Shown here: piece after piece, positions 1-14,003 of the stretch
Layout: each line of letters starts with the position of its first letter
How positions within the stretch are numbered: position 1 is the first letter of the stretch
Origin: a virus
Taxonomy: Duplodnaviria; Heunggongvirae; Uroviricota; Caudoviricetes
Strand: one strand, 5' to 3'
DNA length: 31,243 bases
Virus record (IMG/VR): IMGVR_UViG_2585427771_000003
Coordinates: 1 to 31,243 of that record
The notes under the pieces: model-generated
What the model saw: only the letters and a program-made list of their open reading frames with translations
The model's database searches: none
What the model was told of the DNA's origin: nothing
Position numbers and translations under genes: made by a program

Positions 1-1143
1 CTATGCTGTTTTGATATCTACGATAATCCAGTCTTTACCACGATCATCATTGTATCGGTCGGTCATTTTTCTGGATTTATGACCTAACAACTTTTGCGTA
101 TCCAGACCCTGTTCCCGATATAACCGTTCTGACAGAGATCGCTGCTCATGAAATGTGGGCGCAGTTCCTGGCTCCCATTTTATGCCACATTTTTCCCTGG
201 CCTTTTTAAAAGCCGTTGTAAGAGTATTTGCAGAAACCTGGTCTCCTCTGTTTGCTTGAGAGGTAGTGTGACGGTAATGGACCAGATATTTACTAACAAC
301 AGCATCCCTGCACTGAGATATAACTTCACGAAGGGTAATATTCAGAGCATCGCATTTCAGGCTAAGCGGAATAGCAAGTTTTGAACCGGTTTTTTCCTGA
401 GTAATGTGCAACATGTCGTCCCATATATCAGAGAATTTCAAATTGCAGATATCGCCTAAACGTTGTCCAGTAACAAGAGCAAGTAGCATGCCGCATTTTA
501 AATAGGGCTGCCGTCTGCTTACGCTTTCAAATATTGCCTGCCATTCGGGCAGTGATAATCTTTGGCGGTTTACTCGATTTCGCGGTTGTTTTGTTGCCTG
601 CGCTGGGTTAAATCCTGGCGGAACATGTCCTGCGTGTTGTGCTTCTTTGAAGACGTCGATCAACACCATTCTCACGACTTGCGCCATCCTGTTATGACCT
701 TCAGCCTTTACAGCATCAATTATTTCGGCAATATCAAGTGCGGTAATATCCTTGAGGTGTTGCATTCCACAATGCTCACGGAAAAGACGAATGGGTTTAC
801 CTTTTTGCCGATAGGAGTTGGGTTTTAGTTCATTATGTTGCAGCCTGTCCTCCTGGATAGAAATATATTTATCAAGCCATTCTGTCACCGTAATGTCTGA
901 ACGCCTGCCTTTCATTCTTTCTAGACGCTCATTGACGCTTAATATTTGTCGGGTACGTTGTTCAGCAATAATGGTATTTGCTTCAGTAGCAACTTGTTTT
1001 GCTTCATTCTCATCAGTTCCTAAGCTATGAAAACGACCGGATAGTGGATGTTTGTATTGCCAATATACCTTTCCGGTTCGCTTATCTAATTTGCAATATA
1101 AATTGGGTATAGAGATTTTGTGAGATCGGGGTCTAGCAGCCAT
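1..1143 (-). CDS. int: Tyrosine integrase, lambda Int family (380 aa)
   Basis: Complete ORF on the - strand ending at window position 1. The N-terminus (RSHKISIPNLYCKLDKRTGKVYW) resembles the lambda Int arm-binding segment, and the C-terminus carries HEQRSLSERLY and LLGHKS...RY motifs matching the lambda Int catalytic region. Its 5' end is overlapped by the excisionase gene, as in lambda. Confidence 0.9.
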   Translation of the reverse strand: MAARPRSHKISIPNLYCKLDKRTGKVYWQYKHPLSGRFHSLGTDENEAKQVATEANTIIAEQRTRQILSVNERLERMKGRRSDITVTEWLDKYISIQEDRLQHNELKPNSYRQKGKPIRLFREHCGMQHLKDITALDIAEIIDAVKAEGHNRMAQVVRMVLIDVFKEAQHAGHVPPGFNPAQATKQPRNRVNRQRLSLPEWQAIFESVSRRQPYLKCGMLLALVTGQRLGDICNLKFSDIWDDMLHITQEKTGSKLAIPLSLKCDALNITLREVISQCRDAVVSKYLVHYRHTTSQANRGDQVSANTLTTAFKKAREKCGIKWEPGTAPTFHEQRSLSERLYREQGLDTQKLLGHKSRKMTDRYNDDRGKDWIIVDIKTA

Positions 1144-2334: not shown

Positions 2335-3087
2335 TCACACTTCGAATGCCAACTGAGGGGTAAAGACGTCCCGTTCAGCGTTGTAATTAAGTGAACTGGC
2401 ACTGTTGAATGATTCAATGCGTTCCACAAGAACTTGCGTACGGGTTTCTTTACTTGCGGGAGCATATGGCGAACCTACCCAGGATTTGTCGATGCCTATA
2501 TTTCTTGCGACGTTCGTGCTGTCTGCAGACGAAAGCGGTACATGAGTAAAAATGTCTTTATTTAACATCCGTAACCCATGAATCTTGGTGATTGGGTAGC
2601 CGTACTGATCTACAACATGACGTATAAGATCGCGTAGTTTAGCCCGACACGCTCTCGGTCGTTTTGCATCGTATCCCCCCATCGAGCCGATGCAGACGCG
2701 GGGAAACTCATGGCACAGACGAATAAATCGCTCATCTGGTTCGTTCATGTGCCACACCGGAGCACCAATAAATTTACCGTGAGGCCATGCCGCAATCAGG
2801 GCGTCATTCTCTTCACTGGTTCCGCCGATAACATCCGGGATAACCGCGAATGAGAAACGAGGGTGATTACCCCAGCGTTCAACAAATCTGTAATATTCAT
2901 TCCAGTCTACGGCCTTGTTTTTTGTCCAGAATGTGAATGCACCATTATCAAGAGCAAATGATTGGGTGACTTCGGAAGCCAGATCAATCTGAGCTGGATT
3001 AGCAAAACTGATGAATGCGTGTCTGCCTTTCCAGGCTTTCAACGCACAGGTATCGGGAGTTATTGGACCACCGTGAAAATGAATCAT
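2335..3087 (-). CDS. TGT-like / DpdA-like TIM-barrel protein (candidate DNA-guanine transglycosylase, 250 aa)
   Basis: Motifs read from the translation align with remembered signature segments of bacterial tRNA-guanine transglycosylase: AFISFAN (cf. IILGNT), LDNGAF (cf. TDSGGF), VIPD (cf. IFDE), CIGSMGG (cf. AVGGL), SSADSTNVARNIG (cf. PTRNARNG). There is no CxCxxC...H zinc-binding tail. The ATG at 3085-3087 is preceded by GGGAGAG. The gene lies immediately upstream of exo in the same operon. Confidence 0.5.
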   Translation of the reverse strand: MIHFHGGPITPDTCALKAWKGRHAFISFANPAQIDLASEVTQSFALDNGAFTFWTKNKAVDWNEYYRFVERWGNHPRFSFAVIPDVIGGTSEENDALIAAWPHGKFIGAPVWHMNEPDERFIRLCHEFPRVCIGSMGGYDAKRPRACRAKLRDLIRHVVDQYGYPITKIHGLRMLNKDIFTHVPLSSADSTNVARNIGIDKSWVGSPYAPASKETRTQVLVERIESFNSASSLNYNAERDVFTPQLAFEV

Positions 3088-3238: not shown

Positions 3239-3919
3239 TCATCGCCATTGCTCCCCAAATACAAAACCAATTTCAGCCAGTGCCTCGTCCATTTTTTCGA
3301 TGAACTCCGGCACCATCTCGTCAAAACTCGCCATGTACTTTTCATCCCGCTCAACCACGACATAATGCAGTCCTTCACGCTTCATACGCGGGTCATAGTT
3401 GGCAAAGTACCAGGCATCTTTTCGCGTCACCCACATGCTGTACTGCACCTGGGCCATGTAAGCTGACTTTATGGCCTCGAAACCACCGAGCCGGAACTTC
3501 ATGAAATCCCGGGAGGTAAACGGGCATTTCAGTTCAAGGCCGTTGCCGTCACTGCATAAACCATCTGGAGAGCAGGCGGTACGCATACTTTCGTCGCGAT
3601 AGATGATCGGTGATTCAGTAACATTCACGCCGGAAGTGAACTCAAACAGGGCTCTGGCGTCGTTCTCGTACTGTTTTCCCCAGGCCAGCGCTTTAGCGTT
3701 AACTTCCGGAGCCACACCGGTGCAAACCTCAGCAAGCAGGGTGTGGAAGTAGGACATTTTCATGTCAGGCCACTTTTTTCCGGAGCGGGGTTTTGCTATT
3801 ACGTTATGAACTTCTGAAGCTGTGATGACGCCGAGCCGTAATTTGTGCCACGCATCATCCCCCTGTTCGACAGCTCTCACGTCGATCCCGGTACGCTGCA
3901 GGATAATGTCCGGTGTCAT
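3239..3919 (-). CDS. exo: Lambda exonuclease (Red-alpha, 226 aa)
   Basis: Translation [44 protein letters not shown]... is essentially the lambda Exo sequence as I remember it. Confidence 0.97.
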
Positions 3920-4701
3920 GCTGCCACCTTCTGCTCTGCGGCTTTCTGTTTCAGGAATCCAAGAGCTTTTACTGCTTCGGCCTGTGTCAGTTCTGACGAT
4001 GCGCGAATGTCGCGGCGAAATATCTGGGAACAGAGCGGCAATAAGTCGTCATCCCATGTTTTATCCAGGGCGATCAGCAGAGTGTTAATCTCCTGCATGC
4101 TTTCATCGTTAACCGGAGTGATGTCGCGTTCCGGCTGACGTTCTGCAGTGTATGCGGTATTTTCGACAATGCGCTCGGCTTCATCCTTGTCATAGATACC
4201 AGCAAATCCGAAGGCCAGACGGGCACACTGAATCATAGCTTTATGCCGTAACATTCGTTTGGGATGCGACTGCCACGGTCCCGTGATTTCTCTGCCTTCG
4301 CGGGTTTTGAATGGTTCGCGGCGGCATTCATCCATCCACTCGGTAACGCAGATCGGATGATTACGGTCCTTGCGGTAAATCCGGCATGTACATGATTCAT
4401 TGTCCTGCTCAAAGTCCATGCCATCAAACTGCTGGTTTTCATTAATGATGCGGGACCAGCCATCAACGCCCACCACAGGAACGATGCCGTTCTGCTTATC
4501 AGGGAAGGCGTAAATTTCTTTCGTCCACGGATTAAGGCCGTACTGGTTGGCGACGATCAGCAATGCGATGAACTGCGCATCGCTGGCATCACCTTTAAAT
4601 GCCGTCTGACGAAGAGTGGTGATCAGTTCCTGTGGGTCGACAGAATCCATGCCGACACGTTCAGCCAGCTTCCCGGCTAGCGTTGCGAGTGCTGTACTCA
4701 T
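3916..4701 (-). CDS. bet: Single-strand annealing protein Beta (Red-beta, 261 aa)
   Basis: Translation [66 protein letters not shown]... matches lambda Bet; its stop overlaps the exo start. Confidence 0.97.
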
Positions 4702-4706
4702 CCGTT

Positions 4707-5003
4707 TTATACCTCTGAATCAATATCAACATGGTGGTGAGCAATGGTTTCAACCATGTACCGGATGTGTTCTGCCATGCGCTCCTGAAACTCAACATCG
4801 TCATCAAACGCACGGGTAATGGCTTTTTTGCTGGCCCCGCAGCGTTGCAAATGATCGATGCAGAGTGATTCAAACAGGTGCTGTGGAAGACCTTTTTCCA
4901 TGTCGTCTGCCAGTTCTGCCTCTTTCTCTTCACGGGCGATCTGCTGGTAGTGACGCGCCCAGCTTTGAGCCTCAAGACGATCCTGAATGTAATAAGCGTT
5001 CAT
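4707..5003 (-). CDS. gam: Gam RecBCD inhibitor, short form (GamS-like, 98 aa)
   Basis: Translation [54 protein letters not shown]... matches lambda Gam from Met41 onward. Upstream in frame the sequence reads ...FRSSA but reaches a TAA with no ATG, so the long GamL N-terminal extension is not encoded. Confidence 0.9.
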
Positions 5004-5078
5004 GGCTGAACTCCTGAAAATGGCTGTGAAAATATCGCCCGCGAAATGCCGGGCTGATTAGGAAAACAGGAAAGGGGA

Positions 5079-5489
5079 TTAGTGATTCAGGCCGTTGCCG
5101 CGCCCGTCGAGAAAAACTTCCACGAGCAAATCACGGGTATAAGTGCGCTCGATGCCGCGATGCAGATAAAGCCGTCCGCGTAAATTAGCTGATGCAGTCC
5201 AGGTACCATCTTTGTGTTTGACCAGCATTCCTGGCATGACCGCACCTCGATTAACGGTCTGCGTTCCGTAATGTTGATGAACCATAAAAACTCCTGCCCG
5301 TAAGCTGGGCTGCTGAACATATAGAGACTTCTGCGCGTATTCAGGCGGTGGATGGCCGCCGGTTGTCATAACTAAGCCGCCTCGTTGAAACGACTGAGGT
5401 ATGAAGTGTTGAGTTGATTTCAGCTGGTCACACCGACGTTCACGCGTCCGCTTCACCCCTCGCACTTCCCGAAGCCTGCTGAAATTCAA
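5079..5489 (-). CDS. Hypothetical basic protein in the N position; possible N-like antiterminator with an arginine-rich N-terminus
   Basis: First ORF downstream of the presumptive pL. The longest reading starts at a TTG (5487-5489) and gives ...[17 protein letters not shown]..., reminiscent of the arginine-rich motifs of lambda and P22 N proteins. An alternative ATG at 5367-5369 would give a 96-aa product lacking that motif. Start codon and function are uncertain. Confidence 0.3.
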
Positions 5490-5539
5490 GCTGCGGACCT
5501 AAGCGGTCATCGCAACGGTGAATCAGGTGGTTGCCGTAT

Positions 5540-5660
5540 CGTTGTGTTGTTGCGATGAATTTATTTAAAACTATAGTTGTTTTGTTGTCAACAACAAAAG
5601 TTGTTTTATTGGTTGTTTTAGATGTAACTGGTTGTATTTAGGATGGGTTTATTTTGTGAC
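5540..5660 (-). promoter_or_regulatory. Putative OL/pL early-left control region
   Basis: AT-rich intergenic segment with inverted repeats built from GTTGTT/AACAAC arms (TTGTTGTCAACAACAA, AACAACAAAAGTTGTT, TGGTTGT), related to the ACAACC/GGTTGT half-sites seen in the cI-cro operator region. Position corresponds to OL/pL of lambda. Confidence 0.4.
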
Positions 5661-5732
5661 TTGCATCGCATAGCGATAACTGAAGGGAGATTGTGGTGGT
5701 TTTTTGAACGGTATACGTGATGAGGGGAGGGG

Positions 5733-5761
5733 ATAAAAGAAAACCCGGCACGGTGGCCGGG
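5733..5761 (-). terminator. Rho-independent terminator downstream of the rex-position gene
   Basis: Hairpin CCCGGC-ACGGTG-GCCGGG at 5744-5761, followed on the - strand by a T-rich tract (reverse complement of taaaagaaaa). It starts 6 nt after the stop of the 5767..6720 gene and resembles the terminator that follows rexB in lambda. Confidence 0.7.
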
Positions 5762-5766
5762 TATCT

Positions 5767-6720
5767 TTATTCGAATGGAAGATCTATTTGCCTTTGAGGA
5801 TTCAACTGTTTTTTTACATGCTCAATTTCGAATATGGTTTTTATGGCATCTCCGATCATATATTGAGTTACTTTTAAATCTACAAGTAACATATCACCTT
5901 TAGAAAAATTTAAGGTGTTGTTATCAATATCGCTGATGAATTTCTGGTCTTTTATTTCAGCCAAAAAGCTACTGGCACCATCAGAAAACCGCCACCGGCT
6001 TCCTTCATTGAAGGAAATATTTTTAATTTGAAGGGCTTTCTCTACTGTGTACTCTGAAATTATTGATTCTGCTGGTAGATTGACTTTGAAATAATGTGCT
6101 TCTTGCTTGTTGATCGTCATGAATGTCAAACCATCATCGACAGTAGAGGCAAAGCTGTCAATGCCTTCCTGCTCTAATGGCTTACTTATAACTTCTTGTA
6201 ATGAAGAGCGAAGTTTAATATTTTTATAAAGTTCAATAACGTTACTGTCGTAGATCTCGCTTTCGTCATCAACAAAGACTTCGATGTTGCTATCAGGCAA
6301 ATTGTGTAATTTTTTTATTTTCCTTGGACCTATCCATTTTATCAGTTGAATTAGGCCTTTGCATATTTTTTCTTTAGAACCAGGACAGAGTCCAATAAAA
6401 GCAATCAAATTCGCAGCGGCTGTTGCTGAATCGCCGGATAAAAAATCAACAGCCTGTTTGAACCAAGATGTAGATGAGGCAACCAGATCTATTCCAAATG
6501 AGCCAGCTTTAAATGATGCATTGACTTTTACAGAAACAACAGTCTTGTTTCCGTAGAGAGTTTTACCGGCTTCCTCTAATGCATCTGATAGTGATAGAAG
6601 GGCAGGAGCAAGGTCTCGCACGTTCATTTCATGCGTTTCCAGTGCCGGACCGTCGTATACTATCCTGAACTTCATATCATTGGTTTCCGAATTGTTGCCC
6701 GCATCCATTATGGCATTCAC
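5767..6720 (-). CDS. Unknown 313-317 aa protein in the rexAB position (candidate superinfection-exclusion or anti-phage defence gene)
   Basis: Long ORF directly downstream of cI on the same strand, separated by about 60 nt and closed by a terminator. The DNA is visibly AT-rich compared with the flanking lambda-like genes. Start is ambiguous: GTG at 6720, ATG at 6708 (preceded by AGGTG), or ATG at 6675. No transmembrane segment or recognisable catalytic motif, and no resemblance to RexA or RexB. Confidence 0.6.
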   Translation of the reverse strand: MNAIMDAGNNSETNDMKFRIVYDGPALETHEMNVRDLAPALLSLSDALEEAGKTLYGNKTVVSVKVNASFKAGSFGIDLVASSTSWFKQAVDFLSGDSATAAANLIAFIGLCPGSKEKICKGLIQLIKWIGPRKIKKLHNLPDSNIEVFVDDESEIYDSNVIELYKNIKLRSSLQEVISKPLEQEGIDSFASTVDDGLTFMTINKQEAHYFKVNLPAESIISEYTVEKALQIKNISFNEGSRWRFSDGASSFLAEIKDQKFISDIDNNTLNFSKGDMLLVDLKVTQYMIGDAIKTIFEIEHVKKQLNPQRQIDLPFE

Positions 6721-6781
6721 CTGATCACATATACAGTTAATTTACGATATTGTCTTAAATCTTAAAACTTCTATTGTATGG

Positions 6782-7471
6782 CTACCCATGCTTCCTATAC
6801 GTCTGCGGCATGCTCCCAATAACCTTACCGAAGATGAACACCCGGTTCATCTCGTCTTTCTCGATCGGGTCCCAAGGTGAGTAGCTCTTGTTATCAGAGA
6901 TAACCAGCAGCTTATCCTTCATCATTTGCAGACGCTTTACATGGGCTGTGTCGTCGTACAGAAACGCATAGATACCATCACCGTCGAAAGATTTAACCGT
7001 GATATCAACGAACAGCAGATCACCTGGTTCGATCGTTCCTGACATGCTGTCACCGCGTACGTTAATGATACGGATATTTTCCGCCTTCCTGCCATCGAAC
7101 ATGTGACGAGCATCGTCAAACGAATACTCAACCGAACGTAGAACTTCTACAAACTCACGGTTGATGACTCCCGGCCCGGCACTCACTTCGATATCAAGAA
7201 CGTCAATCTTAAAGTATTTGGAATGGCTGACAGTTGTTTGTATTGGTTGCACTGTACTGTCTGACATATTTCCAACGCCAGAAGATAACCATTCTGCGCG
7301 CACACCCAAAGCGTTCGCGATCTCCACGATTTTAGTTGTTTGGTTAGCTTTCCCTGTTTCGATTTTCTGAATAGCTGCTTGGCTAACCCCGACCAAATCC
7401 CCAAGCGCCTTTTGTGTAAGGCCTCGCGCTAATCTGGCTTCTTTAAGTCTTTCTGAGAGTGTTGTTTTCAT
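6782..7471 (-). CDS. cI: CI-like prophage repressor (HTH_XRE N-terminal domain plus LexA/S24-like C-terminal domain, 229 aa)
   Basis: From the ATG at 7469-7471: MKTTLSERLKEARLARGLTQKALGDLVGVSQAAIQKIETGK (helix-turn-helix), with a C-terminal GDSM...K segment typical of self-cleaving S24 repressors. Divergent from cro. No Shine-Dalgarno precedes the ATG, consistent with a leaderless pRM transcript as in lambda. Confidence 0.85.
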   Translation of the reverse strand: MKTTLSERLKEARLARGLTQKALGDLVGVSQAAIQKIETGKANQTTKIVEIANALGVRAEWLSSGVGNMSDSTVQPIQTTVSHSKYFKIDVLDIEVSAGPGVINREFVEVLRSVEYSFDDARHMFDGRKAENIRIINVRGDSMSGTIEPGDLLFVDITVKSFDGDGIYAFLYDDTAHVKRLQMMKDKLLVISDNKSYSPWDPIEKDEMNRVFIFGKVIGSMPQTYRKHG

Positions 7472-7575
7472 AGTCCAAATGTACAACCAAGGTTTTATTT
7501 CATCAAACGAAAATGGTTGTTGACTAAAAACAACCATGGTTTTAATCTTGATTCAAATTAACCACGGAGGTTGTT
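7472..7575. promoter_or_regulatory. OR operator region with divergent pRM/pR promoters
   Basis: Intergenic region between cI and cro containing ACAACCAAGGTT (7483-7494), the inverted repeat GGTTGTT-N7-AACAACC (7515-7535) and the perfect palindrome AACCATGGTT (7532-7541). TTGACT at 7520-7525 is a plausible pR -35; the -10 could not be placed confidently. Confidence 0.6.
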
Positions 7576-7806
7576 ATGAACCCAGCCATCAAAACAGCGA
7601 TCAATATCGTTGGTTCACAAAAGAAACTAGGCGCTGCCTGCGAAGTTTCACAGCAGGCCGTCTATAAGTGGCTTCACAACAAAGCAAAGGTATCCCCTGA
7701 ACATGTCGGCAGCATTGTTACGGCTACTGGTGGAGTAGTGAAGGCATACCAGATTCGCCCGGATCTTCCGAAGTTGTTTCCACACACTGAAAAGAACGCA
7801 GCTTAA
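7576..7806 (+). CDS. cro: Cro-like HTH regulator (76 aa)
   Basis: Small ORF divergent from cI, with GGAGG 6 nt upstream of the ATG; translation MNPAIKTAINIVGSQKKLGAACEVSQQAVYKW is helix-turn-helix-like. Confidence 0.7.
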   Translation: MNPAIKTAINIVGSQKKLGAACEVSQQAVYKWLHNKAKVSPEHVGSIVTATGGVVKAYQIRPDLPKLFPHTEKNAA

Positions 7807-7875
7807 ATTTCCATTTCACGCTCTTTAACAATAAGCAATCAACTTAACAGTCAATTCAAACTAAAGGAGTCAATT

Positions 7876-8415
7876 ATGCAACCACTTACATACCAACAGA
7901 CTAGCGGATTTAGCCCGACTGCGGTGATAAATCGTTCTCAAACAAAACAAGCTCCAGGCCACGAAAAAATCCGTGATGCCGTCCGCGCCTGGTCGGCTGT
8001 AGATAATCAGGATGTCGTTGCCGCACTCATTGTGAATGAGTATCGGGAGCAGGGCGGCGGCACCATCGATTTCCCTGATGATGTCAGCCGTGCACGCCAG
8101 AAGCTGTTCCGCTTCCTCGATAACAAATTCGATTCTGAAAAATACCGAAATAACGTGCGTGAACTGACCCCGGCAATTCTGGCGGTACTACCGCTGGAAT
8201 ATCGCGGTTACCTAGTTGAGCAGGATAGCTTCATGGCTCGGCTGGCTGAAATGGAAAAGGAACTCAGTGAGGCAAAGCAGGCGGTCATTCTCAACGCACC
8301 ACGCCACCAGAAACTGAAGGAGATGAGTGAAGGCATTGTGTCGATGTTTCGAGTGGACCCGGATCTGGCTGGTCCACTGATGGCGATGGTCACCACCATG
8401 CTGGGGGCAATATGA
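7876..8415 (+). CDS. YdaT-like regulatory protein in the cII position (179 aa)
   Basis: AAGGAG Shine-Dalgarno upstream. Segments EYREQGGG and TPAILAVLPLEYR resemble what I recall of Rac YdaT (EYLRQGGG, IPAILAILPRELR). Sits between cro and O. Confidence 0.55.
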   Translation: MQPLTYQQTSGFSPTAVINRSQTKQAPGHEKIRDAVRAWSAVDNQDVVAALIVNEYREQGGGTIDFPDDVSRARQKLFRFLDNKFDSEKYRNNVRELTPAILAVLPLEYRGYLVEQDSFMARLAEMEKELSEAKQAVILNAPRHQKLKEMSEGIVSMFRVDPDLAGPLMAMVTTMLGAI

Positions 8416-8501
8416 CAGGTTCAGAAATGGCGAAAGCCGGTCTGCTGGAACAGAACCGACTTTCAGGTGCAAATCGTAACACACTCATTGCGGGAGGAAT
8501 T

Positions 8502-9431
8502 ATGGCAAACACTGCTGAGATATTCAATTTTCCAGTGCCGGATGCGGCACAAAAGGAGCCGCGCGTGGCAGATCTCGATGATGGTTATACGCGCATTGCA
8601 AATGAGTTGCTGGAAGCTGTGATGCTGGCCGGATTAACACAGCACCAGCTTCTGGTCTTTCTGGCTGTCATGCGCAAAACATATGGCTTTAATAAAAAAC
8701 TGGATTGGGTTAGCAACGAGCAACTTTCCGAATTAACCGGGATATTGCCGCACAAGTGTTCTGCTGCAAAAAGTGTTCTGGTAAAGCGTGGGATTTTTAT
8801 TCAGAGCGGGCGGAATACCGGCATTAATAATGTGGTCAGTGAATGGTCTACATTACCCGAATCAGGTAAGAAAAATAAAGTTTACCTGAAAGAGGTAAAT
8901 TTACCTGAATCAGGTAAAAAAAGTTTACCCAAATCAGGTAAAGGCGTTTACCCGAATCAGGTAAACACAAAAGACAAACTAACAAAAGACAATATAAAAC
9001 CTTTTTCGTCCGAGAATTCTGGCGAATCCTCTGACCAACCAGAAAACGATCTTCCTGTGGTGAAACCGGATGCTGCAATTCAGAGCGGCAGCAAGTGGGG
9101 GACAGCAGAAGACCTGACCGCCGCAGAGTGGATGTTTGACATGGTGAAGACCATCGCGCCATCAGCCAGAAAACCGAATTTTGCAGGGTGGGCTAACGAT
9201 ATCCGCCTGATGCGTGAACGTGACGGACGTAACCACCGCGACATGTGCGTGCTGTTCCGCTGGGCATGCCAGGACAACTTCTGGTCCGGTAACGTGCTAA
9301 GTCCGGCCAAACTCCGCGACAAGTGGACCCAACTCGAAATCAACCGTAACAAGCAACAGGCAGGCGTGACAGCTAGCAAACCAAAACTCGACCTGACAAA
9401 CACAGACTGGATTTACGGGGTGGATCTATGA
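8502..9431 (+). CDS. O: Replication initiator O (lambda O family)
   Basis: From the ATG at 8502 (GGAGG upstream): MANTAEIFNFPVP...RVADLDDGYTRIANELLEAVMLAGLTQHQLLVFLAVMRKTYGFNK matches the lambda O N-terminal domain, and the C-terminus WACQDNFWSGNVLSPAKLRDKWTQLEINRNKQQAGV matches the lambda O P-interaction region. The ORF is open from 8412, so the start is somewhat uncertain. Iterons lie inside the gene. Confidence 0.9.
   Translation: MANTAEIFNFPVPDAAQKEPRVADLDDGYTRIANELLEAVMLAGLTQHQLLVFLAVMRKTYGFNKKLDWVSNEQLSELTGILPHKCSAAKSVLVKRGIFIQSGRNTGINNVVSEWSTLPESGKKNKVYLKEVNLPESGKKSLPKSGKGVYPNQVNTKDKLTKDNIKPFSSENSGESSDQPENDLPVVKPDAAIQSGSKWGTAEDLTAAEWMFDMVKTIAPSARKPNFAGWANDIRLMRERDGRNHRDMCVLFRWACQDNFWSGNVLSPAKLRDKWTQLEINRNKQQAGVTASKPKLDLTNTDWIYGVDL
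8855..8965 (+). repeat. Origin of replication: five iterons followed by an AT-rich tract, inside O
   Basis: Five copies of an approximately 18-bp unit, TTTACC(T/C)GAATCAGGTAAA, each an internal inverted repeat (TACCTGA / TCAGGTA), at about 8855, 8881, 8900, 8924 and 8947. An AT-rich stretch follows at 8966-9005. Architecture is the same as ori-lambda. Confidence 0.85.
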
Positions 9432-10828: not shown

Positions 10829-11083
10829 AAATAATTTGTTTTTAAACGACTAAAATATGGAGGCTCGTATATTTATATGGGCCTCGTTTTATGCTTTTTG
10901 TTAATGTCTTTAGTTTTTATTCATTCTTTTGTGCTTTCAAGATTATGGTGTAAGAAAATTGCAATGCGATTATTGTTGTATATTCAAAATAATGTGACCT
11001 TAATTGTCTTTTTAAATAAAAATTAAACAAAAATCATATCTCACCACTAAGGTTTATAAAAGCATACTTTAGCAGGTGTCACC

Positions 11084-12933: not shown

Positions 12934-12960
12934 TAGCCCGCATAAGTGCGGGCTGCTTTT
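12934..12960. terminator. Hairpin terminator between the convergent ybcK and esterase genes
   Basis: Stem AGCCCGCA / TGCGGGCT with loop TAAG, followed on the + strand by GCTTTTT. The T-run abuts the esterase stop codon. Likely terminates ybcK transcription and may act in both directions. Confidence 0.5.
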
Positions 12961-14003
12961 TACAGGTCAGCGTTTGTTTTTTGTTGTTGGGTAGCGGTTT
13001 TTATGGGGGTTCCCAGGTTTTTAGTAAACCACTCAACAACTCTGTTTATAATAATTGGCTGATACCATGTATTATCGCCATGCTCAGCCCCTTCTACCAG
13101 AACGTACTCAGCGTTATCGCCGTTCTTCTTCAACATCCTGAATAGTTTGGCGCTTTGCTCAGGTGAAACCAGAGTGTCTTTGCTACCATGCATAATAAGA
13201 AATGGGGGTTTTACTCCTTTCATATGTCCGATTGGACTGGCGTTTAGCGCTTTTTCTTTTGACGCTGTTATGGGGGCTCCCGCAAAACTTCTGAATGCAG
13301 GGCCATTGATCATTAAGGCTTCGGTTACGGCAGGAGATCGATGAACCTCCTGCACTGATTCAGGGAACCCCTCGCCAATATTCAACAAGTCAGAAATCCC
13401 ATAAAGTGTGGCAACTGCCTGAACATCTGCTGATTGCTGAAGAAAGTCACCTTTATTAAAGGTTTTGTCACCATTTGTAGTTCCCATCATCTGGGCAAGC
13501 CATCCACCGGCAGAGTCACCCAGAACTCCGATTCTTTGAGGATCAATCCCATAATCGCTGGCATGTTCTCTCAAGTAACGTATTGCAGCTTTCCCATCCT
13601 CAACTGGTGCTGGAAATGTATCAGGAATTGTTCTGTATTCTACAGCGGCCACAACAAAACCAGCTTCAGCCAGAGCCATTCTCATTTCAATAAATTTGTC
13701 ATGTTCAGAAGACATGAATCCGCCGCCGGGATAATAAATAATGGCTGGTCTTAAATCATTTGTTCGCGGGACAAGAACTGACATGTGAAGCTGTCTGACA
13801 GAACGAGTTCCTTTTATCTGGGAATAAACAACATCACCAATGAGATCGACCTGGTTTCTGGTGGGTGAAACACTAATGATATCTGCACCCGGGGTGTAAC
13901 CAGGAAGATTAGTCTGGACAGGTGTTGCACAACTCCCGACCGACATGGCCATTGACATACCATACAATAGTGTTGCAGATGATAATATCTTGTTAATTTT
14001 CAT
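12960..14003 (-). CDS. Secreted alpha/beta-hydrolase esterase or lipase, probable lipoprotein (347 aa)
   Basis: N-terminal signal peptide with a lipobox-like MSVGSC; GDSAGG nucleophile elbow (G-x-S-x-G) and a downstream HGSKD segment typical of the alpha/beta-hydrolase fold. Lies where DLP12 of E. coli K-12 carries ybcL and ybcM. Confidence 0.7.
   Translation of the reverse strand: MKINKILSSATLLYGMSMAMSVGSCATPVQTNLPGYTPGADIISVSPTRNQVDLIGDVVYSQIKGTRSVRQLHMSVLVPRTNDLRPAIIYYPGGGFMSSEHDKFIEMRMALAEAGFVVAAVEYRTIPDTFPAPVEDGKAAIRYLREHASDYGIDPQRIGVLGDSAGGWLAQMMGTTNGDKTFNKGDFLQQSADVQAVATLYGISDLLNIGEGFPESVQEVHRSPAVTEALMINGPAFRSFAGAPITASKEKALNASPIGHMKGVKPPFLIMHGSKDTLVSPEQSAKLFRMLKKNGDNAEYVLVEGAEHGDNTWYQPIIINRVVEWFTKNLGTPIKTATQQQKTNADL

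Follow-up and report, generated by a model that had tools for sequence, protein, structure and literature searches.

What serves early-left transcription in a lambdoid prophage without a canonical N gene, and what is the basic reading frame that lies where N would be expected? Both questions were raised by positions 5004-5660 of a viral DNA of 31,243 nucleotides (the whole stretch analyzed, hereafter the window). The initial annotation gave the gap between gam and the rex-position gene as about 760 bp, in agreement with the 763 bp that we measured from the start of gam (5003) to the stop of the 317-aa rex-position ORF (5767). The sole ORF of at least 40 aa running through this gap (5079-5489, minus strand, TTG start, 136 aa) and its arginine-rich string were confirmed as facts of the sequence, and the in-frame ATG of the 96-aa version was read directly at 5369.

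We propose, with a probability of about 0.7 for the explanation as a whole, that this region serves an N-less lambdoid prophage as its left early control region. The finding as first posed is ordinary: kil is a gene that RefSeq already calls, and no protein corresponds to the arginine-rich motif.

The kil gene and its in-frame upstream extension

The features of the reading frame, all on the minus strand, are as follows.

5079-5285: kil, FtsZ/cell-division inhibitor gene of the phi80/HK225/Rac KilR type, 68 codons
5291-5294: Shine-Dalgarno sequence GGAG, read directly, with a spacing of 5 nt to the kil ATG downstream
5286-5489: in-frame "N-terminal extension" with the arginine-rich string, assigned to the non-coding leader
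5342-5407: conserved RNA module, consisting of CAUACC, HP1, GUUAUGA, and HP2
5398-5372: hairpin HP1 of the module, supported by covariation
5369-5367: AUG of the invariant GUUAUGA, between HP1 and HP2
5360-5344: hairpin HP2 of the module, GGCGG-CCAUCCA-CCGCC

The 136-aa ORF had been put forward as a possible N-like antiterminator; its last 68 codons are kil, and its arginine-rich part falls in the non-coding leader. The 68-aa protein gave a confident, full-length match to a family unrelated to N (PHROG_294, E = 2.5e-38, profile positions 4-80 of 83). Its residues 1-68 also aligned with positions 1-70 of the 73 in the NCBIfam profile NF008465, "FtsZ inhibitor protein" (E = 1.8e-17), an alignment that begins at residue 69 of the 136-aa ORF; the score of 60.7-63.1 bits is below the curated cut-off of 92 for the Rac KilR subfamily, and the prophage protein is thus related to Rac KilR without being its equivalog or a member of that subfamily. 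Aligned end to end from the same Met, it is 85% identical to HK225 Kil and 42% identical to phi80 Kil. The RefSeq CDS call covers exactly these 207 nt (5079-5285, 68 aa), and Kil is annotated also in phages Perceval and HK225. Lambda Kil (47 aa) is unrelated in sequence to Kil of the phi80/HK225/KilR type. The gene product is a small early-left protein, encoded downstream of pL and upstream of gam-bet-exo, and it is predicted from its family membership to block the FtsZ ring and cause filamentation.

To compare the two parts of the frame, we used 103 related loci, gathered via an exact 19-mer and including 74 distinct relatives. The kil frame from ATG 5285 is open in 103 of 103 loci and has 68 codons in 102; in the remaining locus the stop codon has been lost and the frame extends to 104 codons. 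The frame from the TTG, in contrast, is interrupted in 19 of the 103 (~18%) by indels of 1, 2, and 5 nt and by stop codons; among these are a 1-nt insertion inside the arginine-rich motif and a 5-nt duplication after it. An excess of variation at third codon positions is present in kil (diversity 0.080 versus 0.013 and 0.018 at the other two positions) and in gam; no such excess is seen in the extension, where the variable sites are distributed 7/6/6 over the codon positions and the diversity is 0.014/0.024/0.015. The GGAG before kil is altered in just 1 of the 74 distinct relatives, and the weak AGG before TTG 5489 is AGA in 73 of the 74, so that in those 73 the TTG has no Shine-Dalgarno sequence. 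Residues 1-68 of the long ORF had no match in Pfam, PHROG, or NCBIfam. A search of the extension against 5.8 billion (5.8e9) proteins gave 38 matches, 35 of which span its last 28 aa only and none of which is named N. By these alignments and frame comparisons we consider the identity and start site of kil, as well as the non-coding nature of the extension, to be established, and we are highly confident of the combined assignment, a 68-aa kil preceded by an in-frame non-coding stretch. The arginine-rich "motif" is what chance gives when a G-rich stretch of the leader is translated on paper, not a protein.

Part of the extension belongs to a conserved RNA module, which starts with an invariant CAUACC. 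In an alignment of 15 sequences, HP1 showed compensatory changes in 6 of its 8 pairs, with 97.5% of the cells pairing, and none of 500 shuffles matched this; with 21 sequences in an alignment fitted to the model, 7 of the 8 pairs showed compensatory changes. We regard HP1 as a real hairpin on the strength of this covariation. An outer helix enclosing it (UCAUA/UAUGA, 5404-5400 with 5370-5366) is predicted in the window's own fold. The covariance model of the module (R2) scored 87 bits in the window, and the module is present as a single copy per phage. It lies directly after an intrinsic terminator in phi80, HK225, HK639, and 11 of the 12 Enterobacteriaceae prophage loci inspected; in the window it is preceded by the leader segment core A (described below), without a terminator. 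The module had no match in Rfam, and a literature search on its sequence and on "tL1B" gave nothing relevant. Phi80-like phages across Enterobacteriaceae carry this covariation-supported RNA, which has no Rfam family, in their early-left operons.

Two longer proteins have to be weighed against the 68-aa Kil. Kil could be made as a 96-aa isoform from ATG 5369, as in some annotations; this start is used for IdasGreatGrand and in many gene calls, and all 15 of the diverse sequences compared have kept its AUG, with GAG(G) 10 nt upstream. However, the frame between 5369 and 5285 is interrupted in 11 of the 103 close relatives, and in phi80 and HK225 the ORF that begins at the equivalent AUG has just 21 codons and ends far short of kil. 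Downstream of the AUG, indels (2, 3, and 5 nt) alter the peptide yet preserve HP2, the AUG itself sits within the predicted outer helix, and the NCBIfam profile, phi80 Kil, and HK225 Kil all align from Met69 of the long ORF, not from the 96-aa start. We thus consider the 96-aa isoform quite improbable. We also rejected MTTGGHPPP, with its polyproline stall, as a candidate for a conserved leader peptide: its frame is not kept across genera, though the hairpin is.

That translation from TTG 5489 would give a divergent N-like antiterminator, or in a variant of this reading a bifunctional N-Kil fusion, is hardly credible and already contradicted by the comparative data: the KRTRERR string resembles the arginine-rich RNA-binding motifs of lambda N and P22 N, the ORF is the first after pL, its frame is uninterrupted in 84 of the 103 loci, and the Perceval annotators called a 139-aa form, but against this stand the frame breaks beside an intact kil, the lack of codon periodicity, of a Shine-Dalgarno sequence, and of any N relative, the absence of boxA and boxB upstream, the RefSeq call of 68 aa, and the overlap of residues 41-68 with the covarying module, which is intergenic in phi80, HK225, and HK639. 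For annotation, the long and 96-aa "Kil" calls in several phage records should be read with caution, as they run into the RNA of this module.

The left promoter, the immunity block, and the leader

Upstream of kil we recognized the following features.

5743-5762, minus strand: intrinsic terminator of the cI/rex-position-gene transcript, just upstream of oL
5557-5650, no strand assigned: oL/pL immunity-specific block, with GTTGT/ACAAC at 5576, 5584, 5591, 5600, 5612, and 5631
5563-5591, minus strand: pL, with -35 TTGACA (5591-5586), a 17-nt spacer, and -10 TTAAAT (5568-5563)
5522-5556, minus strand: probable 5' end of the pL transcript, rich in C (C/G about 2) and shared by two of the three immunity types
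5406-5521, minus strand: leader core A, 116 nt, phage-group-specific

The density of GTTGT/ACAAC pentamers around 5500-5650 (6-8 per 100 nt) is the maximum of the 31-kb window, where the background is 0.22; the cI-cro gap comes second, with 5 pentamers in 126 nt. pL and pR have in common GTTGTTGAC-N5/6-AACAAC-yATrGTTTTAA, and the inverted oL matches oR over 19 nt at 89% and over 29 nt at 72%. The left operators had been placed at 5540-5660, which is essentially right, except that the immunity-specific block is narrower (5557-5650) and that CAACAACACAAC at 5541-5552 lies inside the transcribed leader, not in the operator block, and is kept in the heteroimmune phage Perceval. Perceval differs from the window exactly at 5557-5650, both flanks matching and the alignment being conserved again from 5556. 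In the L012-type relatives the block is likewise exchanged between conserved flanks, the difference reaching down to ~5521. From these exchanges we consider the position of the immunity block to be established.

The layout of pL matches that of pR (TTGACT, 7520-7525); a consensus scan missed pL because its -10 has no A at position 2. By promoter geometry, transcription probably starts near A5556. The terminator at 5743-5762 (a 7-bp GC-rich stem and UUUUCUUUU, dG -14.4 kcal/mol) is conserved in relatives. In the proposed mechanism, CI (6782-about 7471) would bind the GTTGT/ACAAC-type operators in 5557-5650, which overlap pL; on derepression, RNA polymerase would start near 5556 and produce an untranslated leader of ~270 nt, after which kil (5285-5079) and then gam, bet, and exo would be read. 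The nucleotide sequence of the leader is under constraint and includes the covarying hairpin module; we infer that the leader most likely acts in cis by tuning the expression of the toxic kil, via translation or Rho access.

Core A sits where phi80 has nutL, N, and tL1A. It hardly varies (diversity 0.012) and is found behind three distinct promoter/operator types; for the leader the diversity is 0.012-0.013, versus 0.068 in the spacer between kil and gam and 0.044-0.080 at third positions of codons, a low value to which recent spread and the gathering of relatives by an exact 19-mer may have contributed in part. No homologue of core A was found upstream of kil in other genera (35 species searched), and the window has no second copy of core A or the leader, the best other match being a 15-mer (E = 1.6). 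The fold energies of core A (z = -0.05 and -0.96, not significant) and of the nutR region (z = +0.89) leave structure unsupported by energy alone. An Rfam scan of 4500-8600 (E up to 10) gave two chance matches only, none in the leader.

Several candidate elements in the leader were rejected. As nutL/nutR pairs, the shared 15-mer CGCAGCTT(G/A)AATTTC (5495-5481 and 7797-7811) and a 13-mer (5419-5407 and 7837-7849) are at chance level (E = 1.6 within the window; by our own estimate, ~0.3 and ~3.5 expected, respectively). T/C 5472 and A/G 5467 are not a compensatory pair, as all four combinations were found among the relatives, and an RfaH ops site reached just 7 of 12 matches by eye. A long-range pairing of AUUUCAGC (5485-5478) with GCUGAAAU (5424-5417) is perfect in the window, and its variation is uninformative.

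Early-left transcription without N, nutL, and put

The absence of a canonical N held throughout: no N or Nun homologue was detectable anywhere in the 31-kb window by Pfam, PHROG, and NCBIfam profile searches, and tblastn gave chance-level matches only, both with phi80 N (record sequence) and with lambda N, P22 gp24, and HK022 Nun. The identical E. coli prophage and Perceval each have a single annotated antiterminator, Q. The minus strand of 5286-5556, the expected place of nut elements, has no boxA (none at two or fewer mismatches to GCTCTTTAACAA or one or fewer to CGCTCTTA) and no boxB-type hairpin. The sole hairpin at 5490-5560 has a 10-bp stem and a 32-nt loop, and its 5' arm is lost in one immunity type. 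For put, defined as a two-stem RNA with CGAACGGC / GUCGG / GGCG-GG / CAAU motifs, we built a covariance model (R1) from seven put sequences, which recovered the HK022 and HK639 puts at 60-95 bits. On the window, Perceval, IdasGreatGrand, and an L012-type locus its best E-value was about 4 or more, with no match in the leader, and no put-like pair was found downstream of pL and pR, the leader and the hairpin module being single-copy in the window. We take the absence of N, nutL, and put as established by these searches, and we think it probable that no N-type system acts at pL.

The order in phi80 is pL, boxA, N, tL1A, and then the hairpin module. At this place in the window the whole nutL-N-tL1 cassette of phi80 is missing, the antiterminator together with the first terminator that it would need to overcome. 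As both are missing, we think it most likely that early-left transcription extends through kil into the recombination genes with no phage-encoded antiterminator, and an N-independent early-left operon is the likeliest reading. The alternative that the initial annotation had allowed, namely that early-left antitermination works differently in this prophage, is consistent with all of the findings (Q present, N and HK022-type put absent) and also with the absence of the terminator that follows N in phi80. Whether dedicated antitermination is dispensable altogether seems to us an evenly balanced question. Rho-dependent sites are not predictable, and a long untranslated, partly C-rich leader is the type of RNA on which Rho loads, so some protection may be needed.

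Hairpins with U-rich tails are found on the leftward strand at 5054-5037, between kil and gam, and at 2091-2073, upstream of a DksA-like gene and xis/int; they count against the N-independent reading.

Alternatively, the leader (core A, alone or together with the hairpin module) could be an undescribed class of cis-acting RNA, which would render the polymerase resistant to termination or shield the transcript from Rho without any phage protein, a functional substitute for N/nut as put RNA is in HK022, but of an unrelated class. We consider this unlikely, while noting what speaks for it. Like putL, the leader would begin at the start of transcription; it is retained behind at least three operator/promoter modules, is as constrained as non-synonymous codon positions, and takes the place of nutL-N-tL1 in phages that have no N, yet need ~5.5 kb of transcription to reach int. 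Other authors have assumed that N-less lambdoid phages use RNA antitermination (PMC12315714). On the other hand, the leader has no similarity to put by covariance model and is single-copy, with no second copy in any of the pR operons searched (window, Perceval, and phi80), whereas HK022 has putL and putR; core A, moreover, has no significant predicted fold, and its covariation is uninformative because the relatives are ~98% identical. As the hairpin module occurs also in phi80, which has N, and in HK639, which has put, in both cases past the terminator, the module itself is not the substitute for N.

A still less probable explanation is that host Nus factors alone act via boxA RNA, in the manner known from rRNA operons and CRISPR arrays, with the boxA on the cro side shielding the rightward transcript from Rho and an unrecognized equivalent serving the left. 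The element in question is the following.

7820-7831, plus strand: perfect rrn-type boxA GCUCUUUAACAA at the nutR position, 13 nt past the cro stop, without a boxB hairpin

It lies on the sense strand of the pR transcript, in unstructured surroundings, and is the window's sole match at two or fewer mismatches on either strand; an exact 12-mer would be expected about 0.004 times by chance in 62 kb. Of 35 relatives that share the window's immunity type, 34 have kept it, and Nus-dependent anti-Rho activity of boxA alone is established in other systems (PMC7665894). However, GCUCUUUAACAA has a match in the right operon only and none in the early-left leader, and the early-left operon is thus left unexplained; the element is also absent (0/61) from the other two immunity types, which share the leader and kil, and so is not the general solution of the group. 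In addition, the target of the Nus complex is Rho-dependent termination, and the path from pR to Q has two strong intrinsic terminators (10860-10885 and 12934-12955).

Distribution and comparison with known systems

The arrangement occurs in 2252 of 5426 complete E. coli genomes (~40%) and in isolated, plaque-forming phages with Q and without N; Perceval, IdasGreatGrand, PhiR47_2, 4A7, and others are viable members of the group. We found no description of the early regulation of these named phages in the literature. A very common group of E. coli lambdoid phages lacking both the nutL-N-tL1 cassette and put is thus demonstrated by comparison, and the elongation of its early operons is therefore a testable question. 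A cis-acting leader RNA, if true, would explain how a prophage family found in ~40% of complete E. coli genomes manages without N, nut, and put.

Compared with pL-nutL-N-tL1 of lambda, the region has the same position left of the terminator of the cI operon, a repressor-controlled promoter whose repeated operators have mirror counterparts at pR, a long stretch of leader ahead of the first gene, and gam-bet-exo downstream. In contrast to lambda, it has no N, its leader has neither boxA nor boxB, no terminator follows the position of the first gene, and the first gene is kil. The Kil proteins of phi80 and HK225 and Rac KilR resemble the prophage Kil in length (68-73 aa), start, and early-left site adjoining the recombination genes; however, kil is preceded by N, a terminator, and two small ORFs in phi80 and by three ORFs and a terminator in HK225, whereas it is the first gene after pL here.

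HK022 and HK639 are likewise N-less lambdoid phages with a conserved RNA from at or near the start of the pL transcript, but the leader studied here has no match to the put model and no partner in the pR operon, and there is no Nun gene. The boxA of rrn operons and CRISPR leaders, which acts with NusB-NusE-SuhB, shares with the candidate after cro the exact 12-nt consensus and a location downstream of a promoter on the sense strand (PMC7665894); the candidate differs in that it lies in the right operon, outside 5004-5660, and appears in one immunity type only.

An early-left gene for Kil

The prophage is lambdoid and resides in Escherichia coli, and its region 5070-5770 is 100% identical to the icd-adjacent prophage of strain KC-Dl-1. 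Its genes are arranged as follows.

1-1143 (-), int, followed by xis
between xis and exo in gene order, a DksA/TraR-like gene
3239-3919, exo
3916-4701, bet
4707-5003, gam
5079-5489 (-), the open reading frame (ORF) under study
5767-6720 (-), a 317-aa gene in the rex position
6782 to about 7471 (-), cI
7576-7806 (+), YdaS-type cro
7876-8415, YdaT-type cII
next in gene order after cII, O, P, a ren-like gene, emrE, and ybcK
near 15.9-16.3 kb (window coordinates), the Q gene quuD

A 250-aa early-left gene at 2335-3087 (-) matched PHROG_887 ('queuine tRNA-ribosyltransferase', E = 6e-99) and is called hypothetical in RefSeq. The rex-position gene, between cI and the left early promoter pL, matched the PADLOC defence candidate PDC-S42 (E = 3.4e-86). 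The same slot contains PDC-M11A/B in the related viable phage IdasGreatGrand (L002 4867-6295, -) and two unrelated genes in another, Perceval; from these sequences, it looks like a swappable defence-cargo slot within the repressor operon.

Between gam and the rex-position gene lie 763 bp, against about 760 bp estimated in the initial annotation. Reading the sequence confirmed that the ORF in this gap encodes 136 aa from a TTG start, and that an in-frame ATG at 5369 would give 96 aa. The proposal that it encodes an N-like antiterminator with an arginine-rich motif was refuted on the criteria that the initial annotation had set: the ORF matches Kil, and the leader upstream contains no nut elements. 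Residues 60-136 matched PHROG_294 ('Kil protein for bacterial septation inhibition', E = 2.5e-38). Positions 1-70 of the NCBIfam profile NF008465 ('FtsZ inhibitor protein', the Rac KilR model) aligned to residues 69-136, and the start of kil is therefore the ATG at 5285, 5 nt downstream of a GGAG. As the score was 60.7 bits against a curated cut-off of 92, the protein counts as related to Rac KilR, not as an equivalog. Over its full length, starting at the same methionine, the 68-aa product aligned with the Kil annotated in HK225 (85%) and in phi80 (42%), and the RefSeq CDS covers the same 207 nt ('phage encoded cell division inhibitor protein'). The kil gene is known and already annotated. 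Kil is called as 139 aa in Perceval (OV696612), as 96 aa in IdasGreatGrand (PP925829), and in the 68-aa form in RefSeq and HK225; the Perceval and IdasGreatGrand calls reach into the non-coding leader and its hairpin module.

Among the relatives, 119 IMG/VR loci contained the exact leader 19-mer, and all anchors could be placed in 103. The 68-aa frame was open in all 103 (68 codons in 102; a lost stop gave 104 in one), whereas the TTG frame was interrupted in 19 and the 96-aa frame in 11. The interruptions included a 1-nt insertion in the arginine-rich string itself, a duplication of 5 nt (CAACT) just past it, a 2-nt length change, point stops and, between 5369 and 5285, a 1-nt insertion and a 36-nt duplication. 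In 74 distinct sequences, the variable sites at codon positions 1/2/3 numbered 7/6/6 in 5489-5369 and 11/14/36 in kil.

Table. Nucleotide diversity by codon position
TTG extension (5489-5370): position 1, 0.014; position 2, 0.024; position 3, 0.015
kil: position 1, 0.013; position 2, 0.018; position 3, 0.080
gam: position 1, 0.011; position 2, 0.011; position 3, 0.044

In 73 of 74 relatives, the AGG that could serve as a ribosome site for the TTG reads AGA. Searches of Pfam, PHROGs, and NCBIfam with the N-terminal 68 residues gave no match. Against 5.8 billion proteins, this extension retrieved only 38 sequences, none of them named N; 35 touched only its last 28 residues (96-aa gene calls), and the other three were sporadic E. 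coli calls. It follows that the extension is leader RNA: its frame is broken in part of the loci and lacks codon periodicity, nearly all relatives lack the AGG, and no protein family matched it. The stretch under the arginine-rich string is G-rich (C/G 0.44), and the string is a by-product of that composition.

Left promoter and operators

The GTTGT/ACAAC repeats had been taken for the left operators, and the observations agree with this. Window-wide, these pentamers occur at 0.22 per 100 nt; only the stretch around 5500-5650 has 6-8 per 100 nt, and the cI-cro gap contains five in 126 nt. The best evidence is the comparison of immunity types (operator variants): in Perceval, whose repressor region is a different one, both flanks are about 97% identical to the window and the sequence exactly at 5557-5650 is unrelated, and in a third operator type, among the IMG/VR relatives, the sequence is replaced down to about 5521. 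Because this block is swapped while its flanks stay, 5557-5650 behaves as an immunity-specific promoter/operator cassette. In the sense of transcription, pL and pR align as GTTGTTGAC-N5/6-AACAAC-yATrGTTTTAA, with -35 elements TTGACA (5591-5586, -) and TTGACT (7520-7525), and the two regions share inverted matches, one of 19 nt (89%) and one of 29 nt (72%). As the swapped block ends at 5557, we infer a transcription start close to 5556, 7 nt past the -10 TTAAAT.

The sequence from the cI-operon terminator to the operator oL (5651-5742, -) is conserved in heteroimmune phages and contains a perfect inverted repeat, ATCGC-TAT-GCGAT (5677-5665), and an A-rich tract; it could be a pL upstream element or a protein site.

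The leader RNA and its hairpin module

The untranslated leader, about 270 nt between the pL start and kil, varies less than neutral sequence close by, with a diversity of 0.012-0.013 versus 0.068 in the kil-gam spacer, a difference to which the retrieval 19-mer and recent spread may contribute. Its elements are listed below.

5521-5406 (-), core A
5405 to about 5325 (-), hairpin module (two-hairpin span 5342-5407)
module element 1, invariant CAUACC
5398-5372, HP1, a 9-position hairpin with a conserved third-position mismatch and a UUC-N3-GAG loop
module element 3, invariant GUUAUGA, whose AUG is the '96-aa start'
5360-5344, HP2, GGCGG-CCAUCCA-CCGCC

Core A is confined to this E. coli phage group, where its sequence hardly varies behind three operator types. 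The window contains no second copy of it, and folding predicted no significant structure.

The module has intergenic homologues in phi80, HK225, and prophages of Enterobacter, Citrobacter, Lelliottia, Huaxiibacter, and Escherichia (copies in the compared sequences L003, 2497-2561 (-); L004, 2499-2564 (-); L128, 3643-3707 (+); and L141-L166). It is single-copy per phage, with no copy in the pR operons examined. In phi80, HK225, HK639, and 11 of 12 inspected prophage loci, it directly follows an intrinsic terminator, which is tL1A at the end of N in phi80 and the one annotated 3' of the put-like RNA in HK639. HP1 occurs with at least five different stem sequences, all retaining pairing. In 15 sequences, six of eight pairs were changed on both sides and 97.5% of cells pair, a covariation matched by 0 of 500 shuffles; slid registers pair at 28-54%. 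In 21 sequences, with the alignment fitted to a covariance model, seven of eight pairs had two-sided changes. Indels of 2, 3, and 5 nt past the AUG shift the frame yet HP2 is kept; the module is therefore an RNA element and not a peptide. It had no match in Rfam and, as far as Rfam and the literature searched show, is undescribed.

The invariant AUG opens an upstream frame (5369-5286, -), which runs in frame into kil here and stops after 21 codons in phi80 and HK225. A conserved upstream peptide, with a polyproline motif present, was ruled out, as the frame varies across genera. In the minimum-energy fold of the window, an extra outer helix (UCAUA/UAUGA) encloses the AUG.

Transcription of the early operons

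No N or Nun homologue turned up in the window when the early ORFs were searched against profiles and tblastn was run with phi80 N, taken from its record, and approximate lambda, P22, and Nun sequences. In the annotations of the identical E. coli prophage and of the curated Perceval genome, Q is the sole antiterminator. The nut elements sought in the left leader were absent: there is no boxA with two or fewer mismatches to GCTCTTTAACAA or one or fewer to CGCTCTTA, and no boxB hairpin. The region 5490-5560 has just one inverted repeat (10-bp stem, 32-nt loop), whose 5' arm one immunity type lacks. A covariance model of put, the HK022-type antiterminator RNA, built from seven put RNAs (HK022, HK639, CobraSix, S9-5, and phiEt88), recovered known puts at 60-95 bits and gave no match in the window or its relatives.

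On the right, positions 7820-7831 (+), 13 nt past the cro stop, match the rrn-type boxA exactly (GCUCUUUAACAA), with no adjoining boxB hairpin. It is unique in the window (about 0.004 exact matches expected by chance) and is kept in 34 of 35 relatives of the same immunity type and in 0 of 61 of the other two types. Since a boxA by itself is able to recruit Nus factors and to block Rho (PMC7665894), this boxA may aid rightward transcription in this immunity type as a Nus-factor-only anti-Rho site. It cannot account for the left operon, nor for the phage group in general. Between pR and Q, this phage without N has strong intrinsic terminators after emrE (10860-10885, +) and after ybcK (12934-12955, +), and an opposite-strand gene (12960-14003). 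One possibility is that Q is expressed from a separate promoter before ybcN/ninE.

On the simplest reading, early-left transcription would need no N as far as kil, gam, bet, and exo. The leader is long, untranslated, and partly C-rich. It may have a role in resisting or mediating termination: two weaker hairpin-plus-U sites remain further along the operon (5054-5037 and 2091-2073), Rho may act on the leader itself, and kilR of Rac is silenced by Rho. Early-left antitermination may work differently in this prophage, as the initial annotation had suggested as its alternative; we consider it improbable that the leader is a new cis-acting antiterminator.

Lambdoid phages without N have been described before (PMC12315714; PMC9378689); the arrangement lacking both N and put is undescribed in the literature searched. 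The most informative comparison is with phi80, whose N, nut site, and terminator to be passed are all three missing together from the window: the order is pL, boxA, N, tL1A, and the hairpin module in phi80, and pL, core A, and the hairpin module in this prophage.
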